From Candidatus Poribacteria bacterium (GTDB lineage Bacteria > Poribacteria > WGA-4E > WGA-3G), in the NCBI GenBank assembly GCA_965205025.1, contig CBDBFU010000023.1, positions 60,455 to 124,454 on the forward strand: DNA of 64,000 bases, read 5' to 3'. The notes below the pieces were generated by a model. That model saw nothing but the letters and a program-made list of their open reading frames with translations, had not been told where the DNA came from and searched no databases. A program made the position numbers and the translations under genes. The stretch's first letter is position 1, and each line of letters starts with the position of its first letter. Of the stretch, positions 474 to 52,350 are shown one piece after another.

Positions 474-1844
474 TTAAAAAAATGTAAGATACGGTTTGCC
501 TTCTATCTCGCGGAGCAACAATAGTGCAAGTTCTCTTCCATGATAGTCTCCCCACATAGATGCCTCTCCACATGGTATTTTTCTATCTTCTGGAACATAG
601 TCCCACCCGTTGGGTCTGTGATATACTGAATGAAGAAGTAAACCTTGATGTGTTTCTGAGGCTGATAAATAGGGTTCATCAAAGAGAGTGTTTGCTACTG
701 TTAAACCAGCTTGGTAGTATTTGGAACTTGATTCTTCTTCACCATGTTTTGAAAGGAAGTTCCCATATCTAATTAACCCTTGTGCCGCGATTGCTGCAGC
801 AGAACTATCAACGGGTTCATAATCATTGTATGGTTCGGACGGAATTGATAGGTAATCTCCTAATTCAACCAGACCCGGAGCCCCTGTATCCCAGTAAGGT
901 ATTCCATCCTGTGCTGTGTTCTCAATGAAGAAATCTGCAGTTGCTTCAACTGCTTTCCTCATATGGGATGTCACTTCGAACTTCCCACCAAAAGAATCAA
1001 GGTCATCATCAGACAATGTATCAAAAAACTCAAGCTGCTCTGCATAACCTGTTATAATCCATGCTAAACCACGAGTCCAGGTAGAAAATGGGGAATAACC
1101 TTGTTGTGTACTGGGACATCGGTAATTTCCATCATTAGTATTGAAGATAGATTCATGAACTACCCGTCCCCGAATATCAAAAGCATCACGACCTTCACCG
1201 TAGTAAACATTATACTTAGCAGTTGTTTGAGAATGTTGGATTAACCGTTCCAATAAGTTTATTGCTACATCACCTTCACCCATAAGGACAGCCCCAAGTG
1301 TATGTCCTATAGCTAATACACGTAATGAACGTATGGTATCTGAGAATAAAGAATGTGGTCCGTTGAAAGAAGCAATATAACCTGCTCCATCCTTAATCTC
1401 TGTCCATCGACTCGCTTGTACGGCTGCTGAAGATTTCAAAGCAATTTCATAAAAGTGCATTTCATTTTCATCAGTTGGGATAACACCTTCCCGCATAAGT
1501 CGACAAAGATTACCATAAGTGGAGACGTTATTAAACCCGTGATCATGTACGCCAATATGTGTAACATGTGGATGCATTTTTTCAATAGTGTTCCGTCTTC
1601 CAATTTCTAAGAATTGTTCATCCCCAGTTGCATCATATTGAAGAATAGCAGATCCAAATTGAAATCCTTGCGTCCATTCTGTCCATCCTCTGGTTGTGTA
1701 TGTACCAGCAACTGTAAAAACAGGTGTGCCATTTTCTGGTAGCCAAGTGTCTTCAATTGACAATATTTTTTCACCTGAAAACTCAAAAAACCTGTCTATT
1801 TTGGTTTTCAGATCATGTATCTTTAATGAATTGTTTATCTTCAT
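474..1844 (-). CDS. glycoside hydrolase family 88 (unsaturated glucuronyl hydrolase-like)
   Basis: HDHGF, STWTRGLAW, IPYWD, DSSAAAIAA, WGDY motifs. Confidence 0.8.
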   Translation of the reverse strand: MKINNSLKIHDLKTKIDRFFEFSGEKILSIEDTWLPENGTPVFTVAGTYTTRGWTEWTQGFQFGSAILQYDATGDEQFLEIGRRNTIEKMHPHVTHIGVHDHGFNNVSTYGNLCRLMREGVIPTDENEMHFYEIALKSSAAVQASRWTEIKDGAGYIASFNGPHSLFSDTIRSLRVLAIGHTLGAVLMGEGDVAINLLERLIQHSQTTAKYNVYYGEGRDAFDIRGRVVHESIFNTNDGNYRCPSTQQGYSPFSTWTRGLAWIITGYAEQLEFFDTLSDDDLDSFGGKFEVTSHMRKAVEATADFFIENTAQDGIPYWDTGAPGLVELGDYLSIPSEPYNDYEPVDSSAAAIAAQGLIRYGNFLSKHGEEESSSKYYQAGLTVANTLFDEPYLSASETHQGLLLHSVYHRPNGWDYVPEDRKIPCGEASMWGDYHGRELALLLLREIEGKPYLTFF

Positions 1845-1880
1845 GTATCCTCTATTTCTTATATGAACCTACTTTAGGTT

Positions 1881-2375
1881 TCAAGATGTTCCATACTGTT
1901 CACATATTACTTCAATCAAGTTAGTTGTTGATTTACCTGGAACATTAATACCTACAACTACCTTACCACCATTTTCTTCAACAATTTCTCTTTCTACAAG
2001 CTGCTCTAATTTGTAATCTCCACCTTTTACATGAATGTTTGGTTTGAGATCTGAAAGTAATTCGATTGGTGTCAATTCAGGAAATATCACAACATAATCA
2101 ACACATGCTAATCCTGCTAACATCTCTGCTCGTTCATCCTCAGGAACAAGTGGACGATTCTCTCCTTTGAGTTGTCTAACAGAATCATCACTGTTAACAG
2201 CGACAACAAGAAGATCCCCCATCTTCCTTGCAGCCTGAAGATAACGTAAATGACCTAAGTGTAATACATCAAAACAACCATTTGTTGTTACGACAATTCT
2301 GCCTTGTTTTCTAAGGTCATTTAACTGCAATGATAGTTCAGATCGTGTATATATTTTCTTCTGTGTCATTATCAA
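1881..2375 (-). CDS. rfaE2: D-glycero-beta-D-manno-heptose 1-phosphate adenylyltransferase (HldE domain II)
   Basis: TNGCFDVLHLGH, NSDDSVRQLKG..RP, VKGGDY, STT motifs. Confidence 0.9.
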   Translation of the reverse strand: MIMTQKKIYTRSELSLQLNDLRKQGRIVVTTNGCFDVLHLGHLRYLQAARKMGDLLVVAVNSDDSVRQLKGENRPLVPEDERAEMLAGLACVDYVVIFPELTPIELLSDLKPNIHVKGGDYKLEQLVEREIVEENGGKVVVGINVPGKSTTNLIEVICEQYGTS

Positions 2376-2523
2376 CTTTACTTTATAAGTACTTTTTAAA
2401 AATTGCTGTCAAAATTGTTGATGTTATATTCATACATTATTGCATATTCACTATACTTTTGCTATAATAAACAAACACTAAAACAAAATCCATCCACATC
2501 ATACAATTCCTTACGGTGTAAAA

Positions 2524-3681
2524 ATGAATAAGAAAAAGACATCCATTCATCAATCGTTACCTATATGCATGCTTGGTGCTAATGGACATGGTAAGACTAC
2601 GTTAACAACTGGTATGGAAAGAGTCGTTGAAAAAATTGGAACAATTCGTTCAGATACCAATACTGATTTTGCTGATCAGTTGCCAAATCACCACCAGATA
2701 TGTGAAGGAGTTGGTTTTACTTTTCGATCTATTGACTATGAAACAAGCGGAAAACACTATACACAGATAGATTGTAATACACATCAGGATATAATAAAAT
2801 TATTAGTTAGTGGTACTCTGGATATTCAAGGTGCAATATGGGTAGTCGATGCAGATGAAGGTGTAACGCCAGAATCTGAAGAACTGGTTTATATTGCCAA
2901 TCGTGTTAAAGTATCCAATATTGTATCATTCTTAAATATTCATAATACCGATGACAGTGAGTTAGTAAATATCTGTCAACATGAAATGAGAGAATTACTC
3001 ACTGAATGTGGATGGAATGAGAATAATTCACCAATATTAGTTGGTGATGCACATAATACATTAAACTATAAAACTGTAAATTTGGGTTCAGACCAATGGA
3101 AACCTATCGTTGATACCATTTCTGCATTAAACAGCATAATGCCGGATCCAATTGATAAATCACATCTTCATCTGGTTTTACCTATACATGAAATTGTGAA
3201 GGAAAGTAAAGAGACTGTGACATTTTCAGGTGAATTAATACAAGGTCATCTTTCTGTAGGTCAATCCATTGATATTGTTGGCAAAGGAGACAGGGTTAAA
3301 ACAAAATGTTTAAATATTAAAGAAGATGAAATAACAGTAGAATCTGAACCAGACTGGTTATCTGTTGGACAGGTTGTATGTTCCCCAAAGACTATAAAAG
3401 CACATACAGAATTTATAGCTATTGTTTATTTACTAAGCCAGGAAGAAAGCGGAACACATATCCCTATAATTCAAAATGATAAGCTTGATATCCACCTATG
3501 GGGTATAGATGTTCATGCACGTGTTCAACTTCCACCAGAACTATCAATCATATCTCCAGGATCAAATTGTGAGCTTTCTATTTACCTTGATCTTCCTCTT
3601 GTGATGGAAGTTGGTACAACATTCGAAATAAAAAAGATGGATCTGAGAATCGGTTTGGGAATCGTAACAGAAGTTACATAA
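2524..3681 (+). CDS. divergent EF-Tu-like protein with degenerate GTPase motifs
   Basis: GANGHGKTTLT, YETSGKHYTQIDC, GAIWVVDADEG, EMRELL, C-terminal IGLGIVTEV align by eye to EF-Tu; DCPG is DCNT, NKCD is NIHN. Confidence 0.75.
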   Translation: MNKKKTSIHQSLPICMLGANGHGKTTLTTGMERVVEKIGTIRSDTNTDFADQLPNHHQICEGVGFTFRSIDYETSGKHYTQIDCNTHQDIIKLLVSGTLDIQGAIWVVDADEGVTPESEELVYIANRVKVSNIVSFLNIHNTDDSELVNICQHEMRELLTECGWNENNSPILVGDAHNTLNYKTVNLGSDQWKPIVDTISALNSIMPDPIDKSHLHLVLPIHEIVKESKETVTFSGELIQGHLSVGQSIDIVGKGDRVKTKCLNIKEDEITVESEPDWLSVGQVVCSPKTIKAHTEFIAIVYLLSQEESGTHIPIIQNDKLDIHLWGIDVHARVQLPPELSIISPGSNCELSIYLDLPLVMEVGTTFEIKKMDLRIGLGIVTEVT

Positions 3682-45791: not shown

Positions 45792-46733
45792 TCAGTCATT
45801 TTCTTCTTTCTTCAACCACATTATGAACGCGTCCAGTTCTTTGAAGATTGTCGGGAATACTTTATTCACTCGTTCGGCGTTTTTGAGCGTTTGTTCATAG
45901 TCCAGTTTCTCTGCATAGATATAAATAAAAACGTGCCGAAACCCTAAAAGTTCGTGTAGTTCCGCGTAAGTTTCTTCAGAAAGTATGGGAGCGCGTGCGG
46001 TCCCTGGTTCCACCATCTGTTTTAAAAGTGTTTTATGCCACTCTTCGCCCTGAGGTAGGTTTCCATCAATATCTTGGGCGATGCGTCTAAAGATATTTTC
46101 AAGGCCTTTATAGAAATCGTAGAGGTGGCGAGCGATAAGCATTTCTAAACTTTCCTTGTATTCAACTGGAGCCTCTTCAAGTTTTTGTAAATCTGCTCGG
46201 ATTTTTTTTACGCTCTGTGCTATCTCTATGTGTTCCTCAGAAATCCGTTGAATCAACCTATTCCTGTTCACTGATGCAGGCTCCTTTCTTCTTATAGAGG
46301 TTGCAAGTGCCGTGTTAGCCGCTGTTCCTCCATTCCGAATCGGAACAGCTTGGCTCTGAACTCGTTCTCGAAAACGCTCTTTACAACTTTCAAAACTGAC
46401 TAAATCAATTCTGAATTCTTGGCTAAAGTCGAGAGTCTCTGCTACGGCGCGAAAATACTTGTCAGATGGAATCCCCCAAGCGACAATATCAATATCCGAC
46501 CCTTTTGAGAACCAATCCCACTCGGCAAGTGAACCGAAGACAGCGACTTGTGTTGCACCGAAGTCTTCATAAAGCATCGCTGCGACCCGATATGCCGTTT
46601 GCCAAGCGCGTTGCAGCAATGCCTCATCTACCTTCCGATTTTTGAAGTGTTGATCAAGCTTGCGGCGATATTCGGCTAATTCTTCTGGCGATAAATCTTT
46701 CGCTGTACGATGGTCTTCTGTGGGTTGATGCAT
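45792..46733 (-). CDS. fused minimal nucleotidyltransferase (MNT) + HEPN/HepT-like protein
   Basis: VFGSLA...SDIDI (MNT); LENIFRRIA...WHKTLL..M...LLGFRHVFIYIY (HEPN); AAAGGAGA RBS before ATG 46733. Confidence 0.82.
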   Translation of the reverse strand: MHQPTEDHRTAKDLSPEELAEYRRKLDQHFKNRKVDEALLQRAWQTAYRVAAMLYEDFGATQVAVFGSLAEWDWFSKGSDIDIVAWGIPSDKYFRAVAETLDFSQEFRIDLVSFESCKERFRERVQSQAVPIRNGGTAANTALATSIRRKEPASVNRNRLIQRISEEHIEIAQSVKKIRADLQKLEEAPVEYKESLEMLIARHLYDFYKGLENIFRRIAQDIDGNLPQGEEWHKTLLKQMVEPGTARAPILSEETYAELHELLGFRHVFIYIYAEKLDYEQTLKNAERVNKVFPTIFKELDAFIMWLKKEEND

Positions 46734-47127
46734 ATCACTATCTCCTTTTAGATTATAGTAAACTATCTTAGAGGACACTCATATGAACAAACATGTTGTA
46801 AATAGCAATCCTATACTTAATGCCATCATCCCTAAACAATTGTTCTTCTTTTTTATTTTCCATCCCTAACTTCTCCTATCACGATAGCAACTAATCCTGT
46901 TGAACTTTGAAAACTTGAACGAAATAATTCTGGTATGGGCAAAATTCTTCATTATAGTTAAGCTCTATCTTAACGTTTGTATTGCCATCGGAGAACCTTT
47001 CAAGTGGATTGTTATTATAGCACAATCTTGGTTTAGAGAGTGGTCTAAATTCCCGATGGCAGTACAGTATAATAATGTCCGGTATTCAACACAAAATCAT
47101 ATATACAAATAGTCCAATTACTCAGGT

Positions 47128-47853
47128 CTAATCAAGACTATTTAACCCTTCAACAATCTGTGTAGATTTTGTGCGATGTCCGAACCTTTCACCAACATCC
47201 CTCCAAGCAATTTTACCGTCTTCATTTATTATATATGCCGCTGGTCGTGCAAAAATATTAGCTGGTGCTTGAAGAACATTGTAGGCGATGATAGTTATTA
47301 GATCCTCATCGCTAAGGATAAGAAAAGTGCCATTAATAAGATCTCGTGAGTTTCCAGCTCCAAATTGCGTATCACTACTAATTGCTATTAGTTCTGCACC
47401 AGCACTCTTAATGTCCTGATATCCATCTCGCAACTCCCTGAGTTGCCCTTGACAGACTGTTCAGGTCGAAGTAGCATAAAACACAAGTACAACCTTCTGT
47501 CCTGCATAATCGGATAGAGAATGTATAGTTCCATCAGCATCTGGTAATGAGAATTCAGGAGCAGTCGCCCCTATTGCTAATCCTTCACCTTCAGGTAATG
47601 GATCAGGTTCCGGTGTTGTTTCCACGATTGTTGGTTCAGGAACTGTCTCTACAGGATTCATTCCTGCTGTCATTTCTGGTGTAGTATCATCTGGTGGGGT
47701 TACTTCTGTACTTATATCTGGTTCTACAGGTGTCGTTTCAATAGGAGGACCGACGACATCCTCAATTACATCTTTTTCAAGACAAGCAGTAATAATTGTC
47801 ATGGATACTATTATTCCAATACTGACAATTGTAATCAATAAATTTGGTTTCAT
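47128..47853 (-). CDS. putative selenoprotein: AhpC/TSA (peroxiredoxin-like) lipoprotein with UxxC, TGA at 47461-47463
   Basis: Lipobox ITAC; [12 protein letters not shown]...[24 protein letters not shown]...LIAISSD...[13 protein letters not shown]; both halves are in one frame. Confidence 0.88.
47430..47446 (-). promoter_or_regulatory. SECIS-like hairpin
   Basis: mRNA GCAACUC-AGG-GAGUUGC, perfect 7-bp stem; loop starts 21 nt after UGA. Confidence 0.75.
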
Positions 47854-48004
47854 ATTCACATCTCCATTCAACATTTCAATGTTCTGTTCATTCTATTTTA
47901 CCATAAATGATAGTCAATATCTACATTAGACCTTTAAATCAAACTCAATAGAACATTCTGATTATATATTGCTCAACCTATATTAACTATAGTCAAAACC
48001 ATTC

Positions 48005-49216: not shown

Positions 49217-50041
49217 ATGCTAACAAAAGAGATGGTTGAGGATGCACCAATTGATCCTGGGGTCTATATATTCCACGGGGCATCCGGCAAAATACTTTAC
49301 ATCGGTAAGGCAAAATGTCTACGTAAACGTGTACGTTCATACTTACATAATGTCAAAAATCGCAGATCAAAAATAAAGCGTCTAATCCGTTGGACTGAAT
49401 CCGTACAATATCAGATATGCCAATCTGAACAGGAAGCTCTTTTCCTGGAAGCAAGACTAATTAAGAAATACCTACCCTCTTATAATTCAGCACTCAAATG
49501 GGGTACTCAAACCTGGTTTATAAGAATTACTTTGGATGAAGATTATCCACGACTGGAAAGAGTTGCAGAAATTCAAGAGGACAGTGCAGAATACTTTGGA
49601 CCCTTATCAAGTAGAAGATGGACTGATGAAGCAATTGATGTATTGCAACGGATATTTATGGTACGAACATGCCAAGATAAAATCAAACCGACTGTGGGTT
49701 ATCGGGCATGTCTACAATATGACATGAAACGGTGCTATGCTCCGTGTGCTGCATTAATAACAAGAGAATTCTACAGAGATATGATAGTCAATTTATTAAA
49801 TCTACTTGAAGGGGAATATGAAAAAGTACAAACAGATATGATTGAGAAAAGAAACAGTGCTGCTGCATTGCTACAGTTTGAGAAAGCAGCAGCAATTCAA
49901 CAACAGCTTGTTAGGTTACAGAAGGTTTTTCCATTCCTTGATGCACACAGACATCAACCTGAAACAGATCCAAAAAAGATCCGTGAGGATATAATCCAAA
50001 CCCGTCTTCAAGTATCAAGTCAAATCGAAATGCCATTCTAA
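49217..50041 (+). CDS. short UvrC homolog (GIY-YIG + UVR domain, Cho-like)
   Basis: PGVYIF...LYIGKAK.LRKRVRSY, EA..LEARLIKKYLP.YN, C...CLQY..KRC.APC, AA..LQFEKAA. Confidence 0.85.
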   Translation: MLTKEMVEDAPIDPGVYIFHGASGKILYIGKAKCLRKRVRSYLHNVKNRRSKIKRLIRWTESVQYQICQSEQEALFLEARLIKKYLPSYNSALKWGTQTWFIRITLDEDYPRLERVAEIQEDSAEYFGPLSSRRWTDEAIDVLQRIFMVRTCQDKIKPTVGYRACLQYDMKRCYAPCAALITREFYRDMIVNLLNLLEGEYEKVQTDMIEKRNSAAALLQFEKAAAIQQQLVRLQKVFPFLDAHRHQPETDPKKIREDIIQTRLQVSSQIEMPF

Positions 50042-50184
50042 ACGTTGGCTGAATCCTGTTTCAAGAGTCGAATGGGTAATCTCGTTTGGATTGAACACAT
50101 ATCTAAAGGTATAATCACAATTTACTTGCACTCTTACAATTTATATGCTAAAATGAGAATGTTTAAACTAAAGGAGGTATCACG

Positions 50185-50565
50185 ATGTATATGGCGAAAT
50201 ATGCGCTGATTACTCTCGTGGCCTTTGCAATCCTGACAGGTTGTGGTATGGTAAACAAACAGGCTGAAATGTCTGAATCCACAACTATGGCAGCAGATGA
50301 TGGTACAGCATTAAAAGCTGCAGAACCAGCAACTTCTGCTTATCAGGAAGTGACTTTACAGGTGGAGGGCATGACATGAGGCTCATGTCCCGGTATAGTG
50401 CAGGATGCACTAAATAAGGTCACAGGGGTCTCAGAGGTTGTCAGTGTTAGCAGAGATACAAAATTGGTAGTCGTAAAAATTGAAAAGGGTAAAGTATCAA
50501 ACGAAGTTTTAATTAAGACTATAGATGATGCAGATCCGCGTTTTACGGCATCGCTTGCTAACTAA
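50185..50565 (+). CDS. putative selenoprotein: HMA-domain lipoprotein (GMTUGSC), TGA at 50377-50379
   Basis: AAGGAGG RBS; lipobox LTGC; VTLQVEGMT-U-GSCPGIVQDALNKVTGV...PRFTASLAN, open frame to TAA 50563. Confidence 0.9.
50396..50412 (+). promoter_or_regulatory. SECIS-like hairpin
   Basis: UAGUGCA-GGA-UGCACUA perfect stem; loop starts 23 nt after UGA. Confidence 0.78.
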
Positions 50566-50573
50566 CCACTGTT

Positions 50574-50602
50574 TAGGGCGAGTTCTCTCGCCCTACTTTT
50601 TT
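50574..50602 (+). terminator. Rho-independent terminator
   Basis: TAGGGCGAG-TTCT-CTCGCCCTA followed by CTTTTTT. Confidence 0.75.
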
Positions 50603-50673
50603 GTTGAATTCCAAAATTTGATTAACTCATAAAAATACTATATGGTTATTCATAGGAGTTTAAGGATACGATC

Positions 50674-51036
50674 ATGATTAATAAAGTTTGTATTAGTTTC
50701 TTTATGTTATTGCTGGTAATGGGTTGTGCCAATCAACAACAACAAGAAGCAGAGAATACACCAGAAGAAGCAACCATTTCTGAGGCGAAAGCAGAAGTTG
50801 AAGAAGTTAGCTTAACTGTAACAGGTATGACGTGAGGTAATTGTACAAGTAGAGTGCAGGATGCACTTGCTAAGGTTACAGGTGTCACTGAAGTCGTATC
50901 TGTTTCACAAGACGAAAATAAGGCAGTTGTCAAGGTTGAAAAAGGTAAAGTTAAGACAGAAGACTTAATTGCTGCTGTTGAGGGAATTGAAGAAGTTGAT
51001 GGTGCGCCACGTTTTCCAGCAAAAGTTTCTGAATAG
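50674..51036 (+). CDS. putative selenoprotein: second HMA-domain lipoprotein (GMTUGNC), TGA at 50833-50835
   Basis: MINKVCISFFMLLLVMGC lipobox; VSLTVTGMT-U-GNCTSRVQDALAKVTGV...; in frame with the listed 50854-51036 ORF. Confidence 0.9.
50848..50871 (+). promoter_or_regulatory. SECIS-like hairpin
   Basis: AGUA-(G bulge)-AGUGCA-GGA-UGCACU-UGCU; loop starts 23 nt after UGA. Confidence 0.78.
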
Positions 51037-51103
51037 ATTTTCTAACGATACAATTTTCATTAGCCAATGAGCATAATTTAGACCTAACGACTGTTAATAC
51101 CTA

Positions 51104-51144
51104 ATAATCCTCATGGACAGGTTTGTCTATGAGGATTATCTTTT
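51104..51144 (+). terminator. long hairpin, terminator-like
   Basis: ATAATCCTCATGGACA-GGTT-TGTCTATGAGGATTAT followed by CTTTT. Confidence 0.55.
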
Positions 51145-51156
51145 ATACAAACAATA

Positions 51157-52350
51157 ATGAGAACAATAATAATCCTGCTGCAATTACTAATAATTTCTAC
51201 TACGCATATCAATTCTATGGAAAAACAACCAGTATTTGAGAAAATTGATCCTTACTTAGCCACACCCGCTTCAGGACATCTCTATGAGATTCCTGTGGTT
51301 ATCATGAGATTTTTACCAACGAAAGATGGTAAAAATCTTGATGTTAATAAAGCACCAGATTTTTGGGATTTAGGTGAGATAACTATAGAGGAACTGAAGA
51401 CAAAGATAGATGTATTTGACAAACGAATTAAGTATATGCTTGAGGAAGGTACAAGGTTTAGAGGTTATAAGAATCCATCTGCTGTTCCATCTATTGGTTA
51501 TCGGGTAGTAGAATATATCACTATCTACGAACAGACACCCAAAGGTGAAGTGAATAGTCATTTAGAAGATGGTACACCTTTATATTCACCTGATTACCAT
51601 AAGATATTTGAACGGTTTAACATGGAACATTATGTTAATGATTTTGGTGTAAAAGAGATATGGATATGGATGGGTGGTGTTAACTCCGATTTTCCGTGTT
51701 ATGATCCAACAATGCATAAATCTGAGGATTTCAGAAACTGGTGGGAATCCAATATGTCAAGTCCACTAACAGGAGATATATCTAATAGTAATCGTGACAA
51801 TGATGATCTACCCATCTATAATTCTACATATACAGTGTATGGACAGAATTTCAGACGAAGTCATGCTGAAGCAGTGCATAATCACGGTCATCAATTGGAA
51901 GCAATTCTGAGTCATGTTGATCATTTACAGTTTGGTAATACAGATCTCTTTTGGAAGAAATTCGTTGGACAAGATGAGGAAGGGGAATTCATTACAGGAC
52001 GTGTTGGATGGACACATATGCCACCGAACACCACTAAACACTACGATTATACCGATACGATGACGCTTGTGGAAAGTGATATTGAAGATTGGACACCAGA
52101 TAATAGTGGAGAGAAAAAGTTAGTAAACGTTGATACATACGCTAACCTAAGATACCATTGGCGAGATGAGAATACTGAAGAAATACCACAATTTATCGAA
52201 TCACAATGGTATATATACTGGATGCAAAATATGCCGGGATATAAGAATGGAATACTGTATGAAGAAAGAGAGATGACTAATTGGTGGATATTTACTGCAG
52301 ATTGGGATAAAGCGATTTCTTCAGAATTAGGTTTAGTTTCAAATCCCTAA
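51157..52350 (+). CDS. secreted hypothetical protein, possible metal-binding hydrolase
   Basis: N-terminal hydrophobic signal; HNHGHQLE and GWTH.PPN; Trp-rich. Confidence 0.7.
   Translation: MRTIIILLQLLIISTTHINSMEKQPVFEKIDPYLATPASGHLYEIPVVIMRFLPTKDGKNLDVNKAPDFWDLGEITIEELKTKIDVFDKRIKYMLEEGTRFRGYKNPSAVPSIGYRVVEYITIYEQTPKGEVNSHLEDGTPLYSPDYHKIFERFNMEHYVNDFGVKEIWIWMGGVNSDFPCYDPTMHKSEDFRNWWESNMSSPLTGDISNSNRDNDDLPIYNSTYTVYGQNFRRSHAEAVHNHGHQLEAILSHVDHLQFGNTDLFWKKFVGQDEEGEFITGRVGWTHMPPNTTKHYDYTDTMTLVESDIEDWTPDNSGEKKLVNVDTYANLRYHWRDENTEEIPQFIESQWYIYWMQNMPGYKNGILYEEREMTNWWIFTADWDKAISSELGLVSNP

Follow-up and report, generated by a model that had tools for sequence, protein, structure and literature searches.

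Within a 64,000-nucleotide (nt) stretch of a Candidatus Poribacteria bacterium genome (contig CBDBFU010000023.1, positions 60,455 to 124,454 of the forward strand; hereafter, the window), two adjacent genes encode small proteins with an HMA domain, and in each of them a TGA codon stands exactly where the metal-binding motif of the domain, GMTCxxC, has its first Cys. The locus raises the question of whether these TGAs are stops or selenocysteine (Sec, U) codons and, if the latter, what a site of the form U-x-x-C might do in an exported protein. The original prediction, made from the sequence alone, took the genes for tandem paralogous, MerP/CopZ-like HMA lipoproteins with Sec in the metal motif. 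We find that the pair consists of real, conserved selenoprotein genes that constitute a new family within a known kind. It is probable, in our assessment, that they specify an exported, lipid-anchored HMA site of the U-x-x-C type that binds a soft metal, for which Cu(I) is the best guess.

The two genes and their products

The elements of the pair, in window coordinates, are as follows.

50185 to 50565, + strand: gene 1, 126-amino-acid (aa) HMA lipoprotein precursor (open reading frame [ORF] with the TGA read through; Pfam HMA)
50674 to 51036, + strand: gene 2, 120-aa HMA lipoprotein precursor (ORF with the TGA read through; Pfam HMA)
50377 to 50379, + strand: in-frame TGA of gene 1, read as Sec (U65), motif GMTUGSC
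50833 to 50835, + strand: in-frame TGA of gene 2, read as Sec (U54), motif GMTUGNC
50171 to 50177, + strand: Shine-Dalgarno-like AAGGAGG, 7 nt ahead of the gene 1 ATG (sequence reading)
50662 to 50666, + strand: Shine-Dalgarno-like AAGGA, 7 nt ahead of the gene 2 ATG (sequence reading)
50242 to 50244, + strand: codon of Cys20 in the gene 1 lipobox, LTGC (motif)
50725 to 50727, + strand: codon of Cys18 in the gene 2 lipobox, VMGC (motif)
50397 to 50411, + strand: hairpin of gene 1 resembling a Sec insertion sequence (SECIS), A-GUGCA-GGA-UGCAC-U, with a 6-bp stem and 3-nt loop
50853 to 50867, + strand: SECIS-like hairpin of gene 2, identical to that of gene 1 in sequence and in its distance from the TGA
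50574 to 50595, + strand: terminator-like hairpin 3' of gene 1, with a T-run to 50605
51104 to 51139, + strand: terminator-like hairpin with a T-run 3' of gene 2

The genes lie on the same strand with 108 nt between them, and their products are 41% identical over 128 columns. Both products score above the Pfam HMA (PF00403) gathering cutoff of 24.8 bits (37.8 bits for gene 1 and 38.7 bits for gene 2). Coordinates and frames thus agree with the placement of the TGA in the HMA motif of both genes, as originally claimed; the frames stay open with similarity continuing downstream, and the separate ribosome-binding sites and lipoboxes, as well as the terminator between the genes, could all be located in the sequence (three terminator-like hairpins were found, versus 1.7 ± 1.2 in shuffles).

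The two products share a layout in which a signal peptide and lipobox Cys are followed by a disordered linker and then the HMA domain. In the AlphaFold2 model of the gene 2 product, the domain shows the order beta-alpha-beta-beta-alpha-beta (strands at residues 42 to 49, 71 to 78, 83 to 89, and 116 to 118; helices at residues 57 to 66 and 95 to 103), with pLDDT values of >90 over residues 41 to 120, a disordered linker at residues 17 to 38, and U54 and C57 where the loop leads into helix 1. Without the half encoded after the TGA the HMA domain is incomplete, so this second half is needed for the full domain. A signal peptide and lipobox-like motif recur in 60/60 orthologue sequences (see below), as judged by a simple pattern ([LVIMFA]-x-[GAS]-C preceded by a hydrophobic segment) and not by a dedicated predictor; this supports the predicted export and lipidation of the products.

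Conservation, recoding signal, and Sec machinery

To follow the TGA column, we used an orthologue set of 34 loci (20 from congeneric genomes and 14 from named Poribacteria records) with 68 frames and 60 distinct sequences. The tandem pair is present in 34/34 loci. The first position of the motif is TGA in 67 of the 68 frames and TGT in the remaining one, gene 2 of locus L032; counted by distinct sequences, the figures are 59/60 and 1/60, and the UxxC motif is accordingly found in 59/60. The frame is open and the HMA domain complete in all 60 sequences, with TGA at one column only. At the level of the phylum, we scanned 176 Poribacteria genomes (E ≤ 1e-8; 150 matches listed, with 171 more existing) and obtained a match in 153 of them, including 151 of 158 genomes from the window's order (four families) and 1 of 17 from other families; among the matches listed, 148/150 have one TGA. 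HMA matches in other phyla (66 loci) show Cys in 80 motifs, and the sole true TGA there belongs to another Poribacteria record. In a tree of 60 mature sequences, the first-gene copies form a single clade (99/91) that extends over two genera, which makes the duplication an old one; both copies have since retained their TGA and hairpin.

The region behind the TGA evolves like the region ahead of it. Over codons +12 to +45 past the TGA, dN/dS is 0.26 in gene-1-type and 0.16 in gene-2-type sequences, matching the values of 0.19 and 0.16, respectively, for the 12 codons before it, with the caveat that grouping by the residue before GMT mixes paralogues in one genus and makes these ratios rough. The values support purifying selection on the post-TGA half.

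The core of the putative SECIS element, GTGCAGGATGCAC, occupies positions 50398 to 50410 and 50854 to 50866, at an equal distance from the respective TGA. The hairpin sets in 17 nt past the TGA and spans the codons for V-Q-D-A-L. RNAalifold, run on the 60-sequence alignment, predicted exactly the 6-bp stem; 92.6% of 420 cells are paired, versus 11.7 to 47.9% with the 3' arm slid, and 0/500 shuffles matched the observed paired share or covariation score. Covariation proper is thin, amounting to one pair in four sequences (pair 26-30, where A-U gives way to G-C twice and to G-U twice). Synonymous constraint is the stronger argument for the hairpin. Within it, Val is encoded by GTG in 60/60 cases (15% elsewhere in the same 60 genes), Gln by CAG in 54/54 (39%), Asp by GAT in 44/44 (70%), Ala by GCA in 60/60 (39%), and Leu by CTN in 60/60 (60%), with the unpaired third base of the Leu codon taking all four letters. 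Furthermore, Cys (TGT) copies keep the residues V-Q/K-D-A and lose the stem. The TGT orthologue in L032 has a C25>A change in the stem, and a secreted protein of 398 aa that contains a tandem array of five HMA domains, three of them Sec (TGA) and two Cys (TGT) (L130, positions 419 to 1615 = G092:C1, − strand), has GTG in the three TGA repeats and GTT in the two TGT repeats with V-Q-D-A in all five. One of these TGT repeats duplicates the other, giving two independent stem losses and not three. By coordinates, similar multi-TGA arrays are found in the genomes G141, G145, G136, and G112.

Two other Sec genes of the source genome support a common SECIS design. A third HMA gene (see below) carries the same GUGCAGGAUGCAC hairpin as the tandem pair at an identical distance from its TGA, and the Prx-like selenoprotein gene that neighbors the pair has a hairpin with a 7-bp stem, which begins after a 14-nt spacer behind the UGA, and the triloop AGG. 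The consensus would be a 6- to 7-bp stem with a G-rich triloop ~24 nt after the UGA. The SECIS of Escherichia coli fdhF is a stem-loop in the coding sequence just after the UGA, with the apical stem UGCA/UGCA and the G-rich loop GGUC. Its apical part is nearly the same as that of the pair (GUGCA-GGA/GUC-UGCAC), which differs in its 3-nt loop, in lying ~5 nt further from the UGA (loop at +27 to +29), and in having no evident bulged U.

Poribacteria are sponge symbionts, and the source genome (5.66 Mb, 95% complete) encodes the Sec machinery. Profile searches recovered selB (366 bits) with tRNA-Sec (78.5 bits) directly adjoining it, selA (599 bits), and selD (364 bits), all above curated cutoffs; selA is above its cutoff in 163 of the 176 Poribacteria genomes. 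The selD gene itself contains one in-frame TGA (L011 = G000:C4:104148-105074, − strand) and presumably encodes a Sec-containing selenophosphate synthetase. SelB-dependent recoding at the hairpin is thus well supported by the sequence features. SelB carrying Sec-tRNA(Sec) would be recruited by the hairpin 17 nt behind the UGA, and Sec would be inserted in place of a stop.

Taken together, the machinery, the TGA/Cys column, the synonymous constraint, the purifying selection, and the lipobox uphold the claim that the genes are tandem paralogues encoding HMA lipoproteins whose metal motif contains Sec. The hairpin core said to be preserved in the two genes recurs in 59/60 orthologues; its codons are fixed inside and mixed outside, as the suggested look at synonymous sites was to reveal; the column is fixed where scattered stops would have spoken for decay, and the dN/dS values indicate a downstream half that is translated. 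The Cys-containing relatives that were to be sought comprise TGT in 1/60 orthologues and in 2/5 repeats of the G092 protein and the 80 Cys motifs of other phyla.

Function of the U-x-x-C site and alternative readings

We propose that the products are exported and lipid-anchored at the lipobox Cys, which would leave the HMA domain on a flexible linker outside the cytoplasm. There, the metal site would be U-x-x-C instead of C-x-x-C, and its selenolate/thiolate pair would bind a soft metal ion; judging from the family, soft-metal binding by the tethered HMA domain is the most likely function. The bound metal may then be buffered or passed on in the periplasm, with a CopA-type exporter, a secreted 397-aa protein, and a Sec-containing TlpA/Prx-like lipoprotein as candidate coworkers. 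That the metal is Cu(I), perhaps received from the CopA-type pump, is a guess with roughly even chances among the metals.

A profile search found four HMA domains in the genome. One forms the N terminus of its single P1B ATPase, which has the motif GMHCENC and a CPC membrane motif and which we take to be a copper exporter of the CopA type; this domain is of the Cys type and cytoplasmic. Besides the pair, the fourth lies at the C terminus of the third HMA gene's product, an exported protein of 532 aa that also has WD40 repeats and a CxxCH motif of the planctomycete cytochrome c type and whose HMA motif is GMTUGAC (L044, positions 1468 to 3066 = G000:C15, − strand); similar one-TGA matches within ~510- to 590-aa frames were obtained from 23 further genomes in a scan for relatives. 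Hence, all three exported HMA domains are Sec (TGA) domains, and the sole cytoplasmic one, that of the CopA-type ATPase, has Cys. Because of this Sec-outside/Cys-inside pattern, we hypothesize that the low pKa of Sec and fast Se-S rereduction would keep an exported site usable where Cys-Cys sites oxidize.

Several observations weigh against this reading. In the hairpin, the three central stem pairs are invariant and, as they never vary, uninformative on pairing; the count of double-change pairs (2) is equalled by 86/500 shuffles; and the outer pair 20-36 is unpaired in 27/60 sequences, on account of which an extension of the stem by this pair was dropped. The 60-nt fold of gene 2 is no stabler than shuffles (z = 0.02), against z = −3.66 for gene 1, and the long lower stem that RNAfold gives for gene 1 was rejected, as it is absent from gene 2 and from the alignment consensus. 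Rfam returned no SECIS match in positions 50100 to 51100 (five matches, all far under gathering scores), in a collection where bacterial SECIS elements are poorly covered. The orthologue sequences are related, and so their counts are not independent. Selenium in the proteins is something that we infer from sequence, and the choice of metal has just two bases, the likeness of the GMT-type motif and the presence of a CopA-type ATPase elsewhere in the genome. In an oxidizing periplasm, the U-x-x-C site may sit as a selenylsulfide. Finally, no metal transporter, reductase, or regulator is encoded within ~10 kb of the pair, and no oxidase is adjacent to it.

Contigs from RNA libraries (four runs from two studies, representing a relative ~94 to 97% identical) cross both TGAs and hairpins unchanged. 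Those of gene 1 run from 50169/50175 to 50516-50650, with ends at 50598 (two runs) and 50650 (one run), and those of gene 2 run from 50610-50718 to 50955-50973; the two genes are on separate contigs, with depths of 13 to 26 versus 3 to 5. They lend weak support to expression and to two transcription units, given that such contigs prove neither transcription nor transcript ends, that the libraries may hold DNA, and that two of the four runs have identical figures.

The alternative that survives best accepts the genes as encoding selenoproteins and makes U-x-x-C a periplasmic redox centre, that is, a selenol/thiol oxidoreductase and not a metal site. A Prx/TlpA-like UxxC lipoprotein is a conserved neighbor of the pair, and no metal gene is adjacent. 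Set against this, the fold and the motif are those of an HMA metal site, with GMT-x-x-x-C at the loop before helix 1, and multidomain HMA arrays fit metal buffering better than catalysis; to our knowledge, no HMA protein has been found to act as an oxidoreductase. We therefore regard a redox function as unlikely, even granted the further point in its favor, and against metal binding, that no redox motif is commoner than UxxC among prokaryotic selenoproteins according to published tables (PMC2398784 and PMC13188914).

Another possibility is that the pair comprises MerP-type mercury binders of a mercury uptake or detoxification path. MerP is a known periplasmic CxxC HMA protein, and the affinity of selenolate for Hg is very high. 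MerP (TIGR02052; Protein Data Bank [PDB] code 1afi) resembles the products in being a small, exported single-HMA protein with a GMTCxxC-type motif in the same place, and gene 1 matches the TIGR02052 model with an E value of 8.6e-14; the E value for the match to 1afi is 2.6e-5. However, the scores of 51.8 bits (gene 1) and 34.6 bits (gene 2) fall far below the equivalog cutoff of 92.55. MerT has no match in the 95%-complete source genome, and the best match to MerA there (383.9 bits) remains under the cutoff of 454.45. Moreover, the pair belongs to the chromosomal core of an order and is no mobile resistance module, and it differs from MerP in its lipid anchor and long linker, in having Sec for the first Cys, in the absence of a mer operon, and in being an old tandem pair. 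On balance, a mercury path appears highly unlikely. In its favor, a "Mercuric transport protein MerP" selenoprotein was listed from ocean (GOS) metagenomes, with 2 sequences in 1 sample (table in PMC2398784); it probably embodies the same idea, an exported HMA domain with Sec, as far as its description permits comparison, and it consists of two fragments with no organism, context, or SECIS description.

The remaining alternatives deny Sec at this site. That the TGAs are plain stops in genes that are decayed or encode only short lipopeptides might be suggested by gene callers that end proteins at GMT (P0015 and P0016 in public protein sets), but it has next to no probability against dN/dS values of 0.16 to 0.26 after the TGA, an open frame and complete HMA domain in 60/60 sequences with TGA at one column only, and the presence of the hairpin and Sec machinery. 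Equally negligible is a reading of the TGA as Trp (code 4) or as Cys (near-cognate read-through), for which one could cite the W at this site in 13 full-length metagenome homologues in public sets (P0003 to P0014 and P0017; code 4 chosen, short contigs); TGA is an ordinary stop that terminates 6/32 window ORFs of ≥250 aa, the in-frame TGAs seen occur only at Cys-equivalent sites of the HMA, Prx-like, and SelD genes, Trp is no substitute for a metal-ligand Cys, and the hairpin is lost exactly where TGT stands for TGA. The public protein sets returned no close Cys homologue, and one NCBI record (P0019) omits 10 residues around the Sec site. Given these W-bearing, truncated, and shortened records, the family is systematically misannotated in public gene calls.

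With soft-metal binding as the preferred reading, the pair can be placed among known families. Its nearest solved sequences are the metal-binding domains of Cu(I)-ATPases (ATP7B and CopA), CopZ, MerP, and NmerA. CopZ/Atx1 and the Cu(I) P-type ATPase domains have the same fold (25.8 bits to ATP7B domain 6), but they are cytoplasmic and Cys-Cys, whereas the pair consists of exported Sec-Cys lipoproteins; the CopZ models NF033795, NF047957, and NF033794 give ≤52.9 bits against cutoffs of 85 to 95. NF041115, a UxxU metal-binding (seleno)protein that appears as "putative mercuric reductase" in passages of a 2026 review (PMC13188914), is likewise small and HMA-like, and its metal motif contains Sec (E = 4.8e-13 and 2.3e-12; 49.1 and 46.8 bits versus a cutoff of 95); what sets the pair apart is the single Sec of its UxxC motif, together with the signal peptide and lipobox. 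Sec within or next to an HMA-type metal site also occurs in two kinds of metal transport protein, NF045683 (MerT/CopZ fusion-like selenoprotein) and a Sec-containing cation-transporting ATPase (UxxC; listed in PMC2398784 and PMC13188914). In contrast to these membrane transporters or fusions, the pair is free-standing and lipid-anchored (40.6 bits versus the NF045683 cutoff of 375). SaoX, SaoC, and SaoB are exported, mostly lipid-anchored proteins for which Sec has been proposed as a metal ligand (bioRxiv 10.1101/2022.07.06.499078, in part); from what is described there, they differ in their unrelated folds (substrate-binding proteins, CC-COOH tails), their occurrence in anaerobic Firmicutes, and their CU motifs.

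HMA-type selenoproteins as a kind have therefore been predicted before (GOS MerP, NF041115, and NF045683), and the scores below the cutoffs of the NF041115, NF045683, MerP, and CopZ models make the pair a separate family. The label "MerP/CopZ-like" holds for fold and location and fails at family level, where both products stay under the MerP, CopZ, and UxxU model cutoffs in a genome with neither MerT nor a MerA above cutoff. Literature searches, with subscription journals and supplements outside their scope, yielded no description of the family, whether they joined Poribacteria with selenoprotein/selenocysteine or selenoprotein with MerP/CopZ/HMA domain. By its title and abstract, the paper that joins Poribacteria with both selenium terms concerns hydrogenases, and the passages of PMC13188914 concerned make no mention of Poribacteria, lipoprotein, periplasm, or PF00403.

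Neighborhood, candidate partners, and implications

Three further genes near the pair bear on its possible partners or its context.

51157 to 52350, + strand: candidate partner, a 397-aa secreted protein (P0020) with its own signal peptide
47128 to 47874, − strand: Prx/TlpA-like (AhpC-TSA) lipoprotein, 248 aa with read-through of a TGA at 47463-47461 (U138, T-U-T-V-C)
49217 to 50041, + strand: GIY-YIG/UVR-motif (UvrC-like) gene, 274 aa, directly upstream of the pair

The original prediction noted that no merA, merT, or copA gene is adjacent, and we found no mer or cop gene within ~10 kb; its conclusion that the partner is unknown can be amended. In genome G016 (seen in locus L040), the 397-aa protein is fused in frame behind gene 2, with the junction at the end of its signal peptide, and coordinates and open-frame length indicate the same gene 2 fusion in G099 (G099:C44:11790-13226). 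As gene 2 is fused to it in two genomes, the 397-aa protein is a candidate partner. It occurs in 50/176 Poribacteria genomes (69 to 91% identity), and its gene adjoins the pair in ~24 of the 30 other same-genus genomes that have it and in few of the other genus, on a reading of coordinates.

Sequence searches of Pfam, NCBIfam, and the PDB gave no match for this protein. Its family has 1,053 representative relatives, in which it is mostly one domain of long secreted proteins, combined with Laminin_G_3, Big_2, BACON, CBM60/96, PKD, and type IX secretion tails; one relative has a MopE copper-binding motif. The structural model is confident (pLDDT 93.3), and Foldseek retrieved nothing from the PDB at E ≤ 0.001 (best E = 0.018, TM 0.24, ADAM/TACE metzincins). 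In a wide VIA-align comparison, the best Z score of 6.5 (a mix of MoaB-like, ADAM, O-glycopeptidase, and Argonaute-MID folds) was below the meaningful level, and the ESM Atlas placed the protein in unnamed clusters only, with Peptidase_M64 at 0.75, a weak match. H245, E248, and H287 are invariant in the family and would suit a metal site. A complex prediction of the HMA domain (the Cys orthologue from L032) with the adjacent 397-aa orthologue scored 0.00, which weighs neither way.

The Prx/TlpA-like gene, which gene callers split into 137-aa and 101-aa ORFs, lies 2 to 5 kb upstream of the pair in 11/14 named loci, with the TGA kept in at least 9 of those 11. Other bacteria rely on TlpA-type reductases to maintain the cysteines of periplasmic copper sites in reduced form, and by analogy, this lipoprotein is a possible reductant of the U-x-x-C site. 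The UvrC-like gene is directly upstream of the pair in 15/15 loci compared, with no functional link evident. Other neighbors within ~10 kb encode M16 peptidases, an isochorismatase-like protein, a HepT/NTase pair, a PhyH dioxygenase, WD40 proteins, and UvrD. At 45792 to 46778 (− strand), a 328-aa ORF combines a nucleotidyltransferase (Polbeta) and a HepT-like domain in one protein, which is reminiscent of a fused toxin-antitoxin pair.

These elements could be joined in a selenium-dependent extracytoplasmic module, in which exported HMA sites would be Sec-x-x-Cys and cytoplasmic ones Cys-x-x-Cys, the pair would load the 397-aa protein as an enzyme, and the TlpA/Prx-like lipoprotein would reduce the sites; we put this forward as a speculative and, in its entirety, unlikely extension.

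The pair offers a lineage-wide, well-defined case in which Sec would serve an exported domain of the chaperone type as a metal ligand. It is of interest for the Sec/Cys controls that nature provides, for the distribution of Sec and Cys between compartments, and for its connection with a secreted 397-aa protein of an uncharacterized family. The controls are a protein that mixes Sec and Cys repeats, an orthologue of the Cys type, and the Cys domain on the cytoplasmic side of the same genome's HMA set; with them, the question of why Sec is used instead of Cys becomes testable for metal binding and not for redox catalysis. The SECIS consensus could be used to find the remaining poribacterial selenoproteome. 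As these genes are cut at the TGA or given Trp in public sets, the metal handling and selenium demand of abundant sponge symbionts are underannotated.

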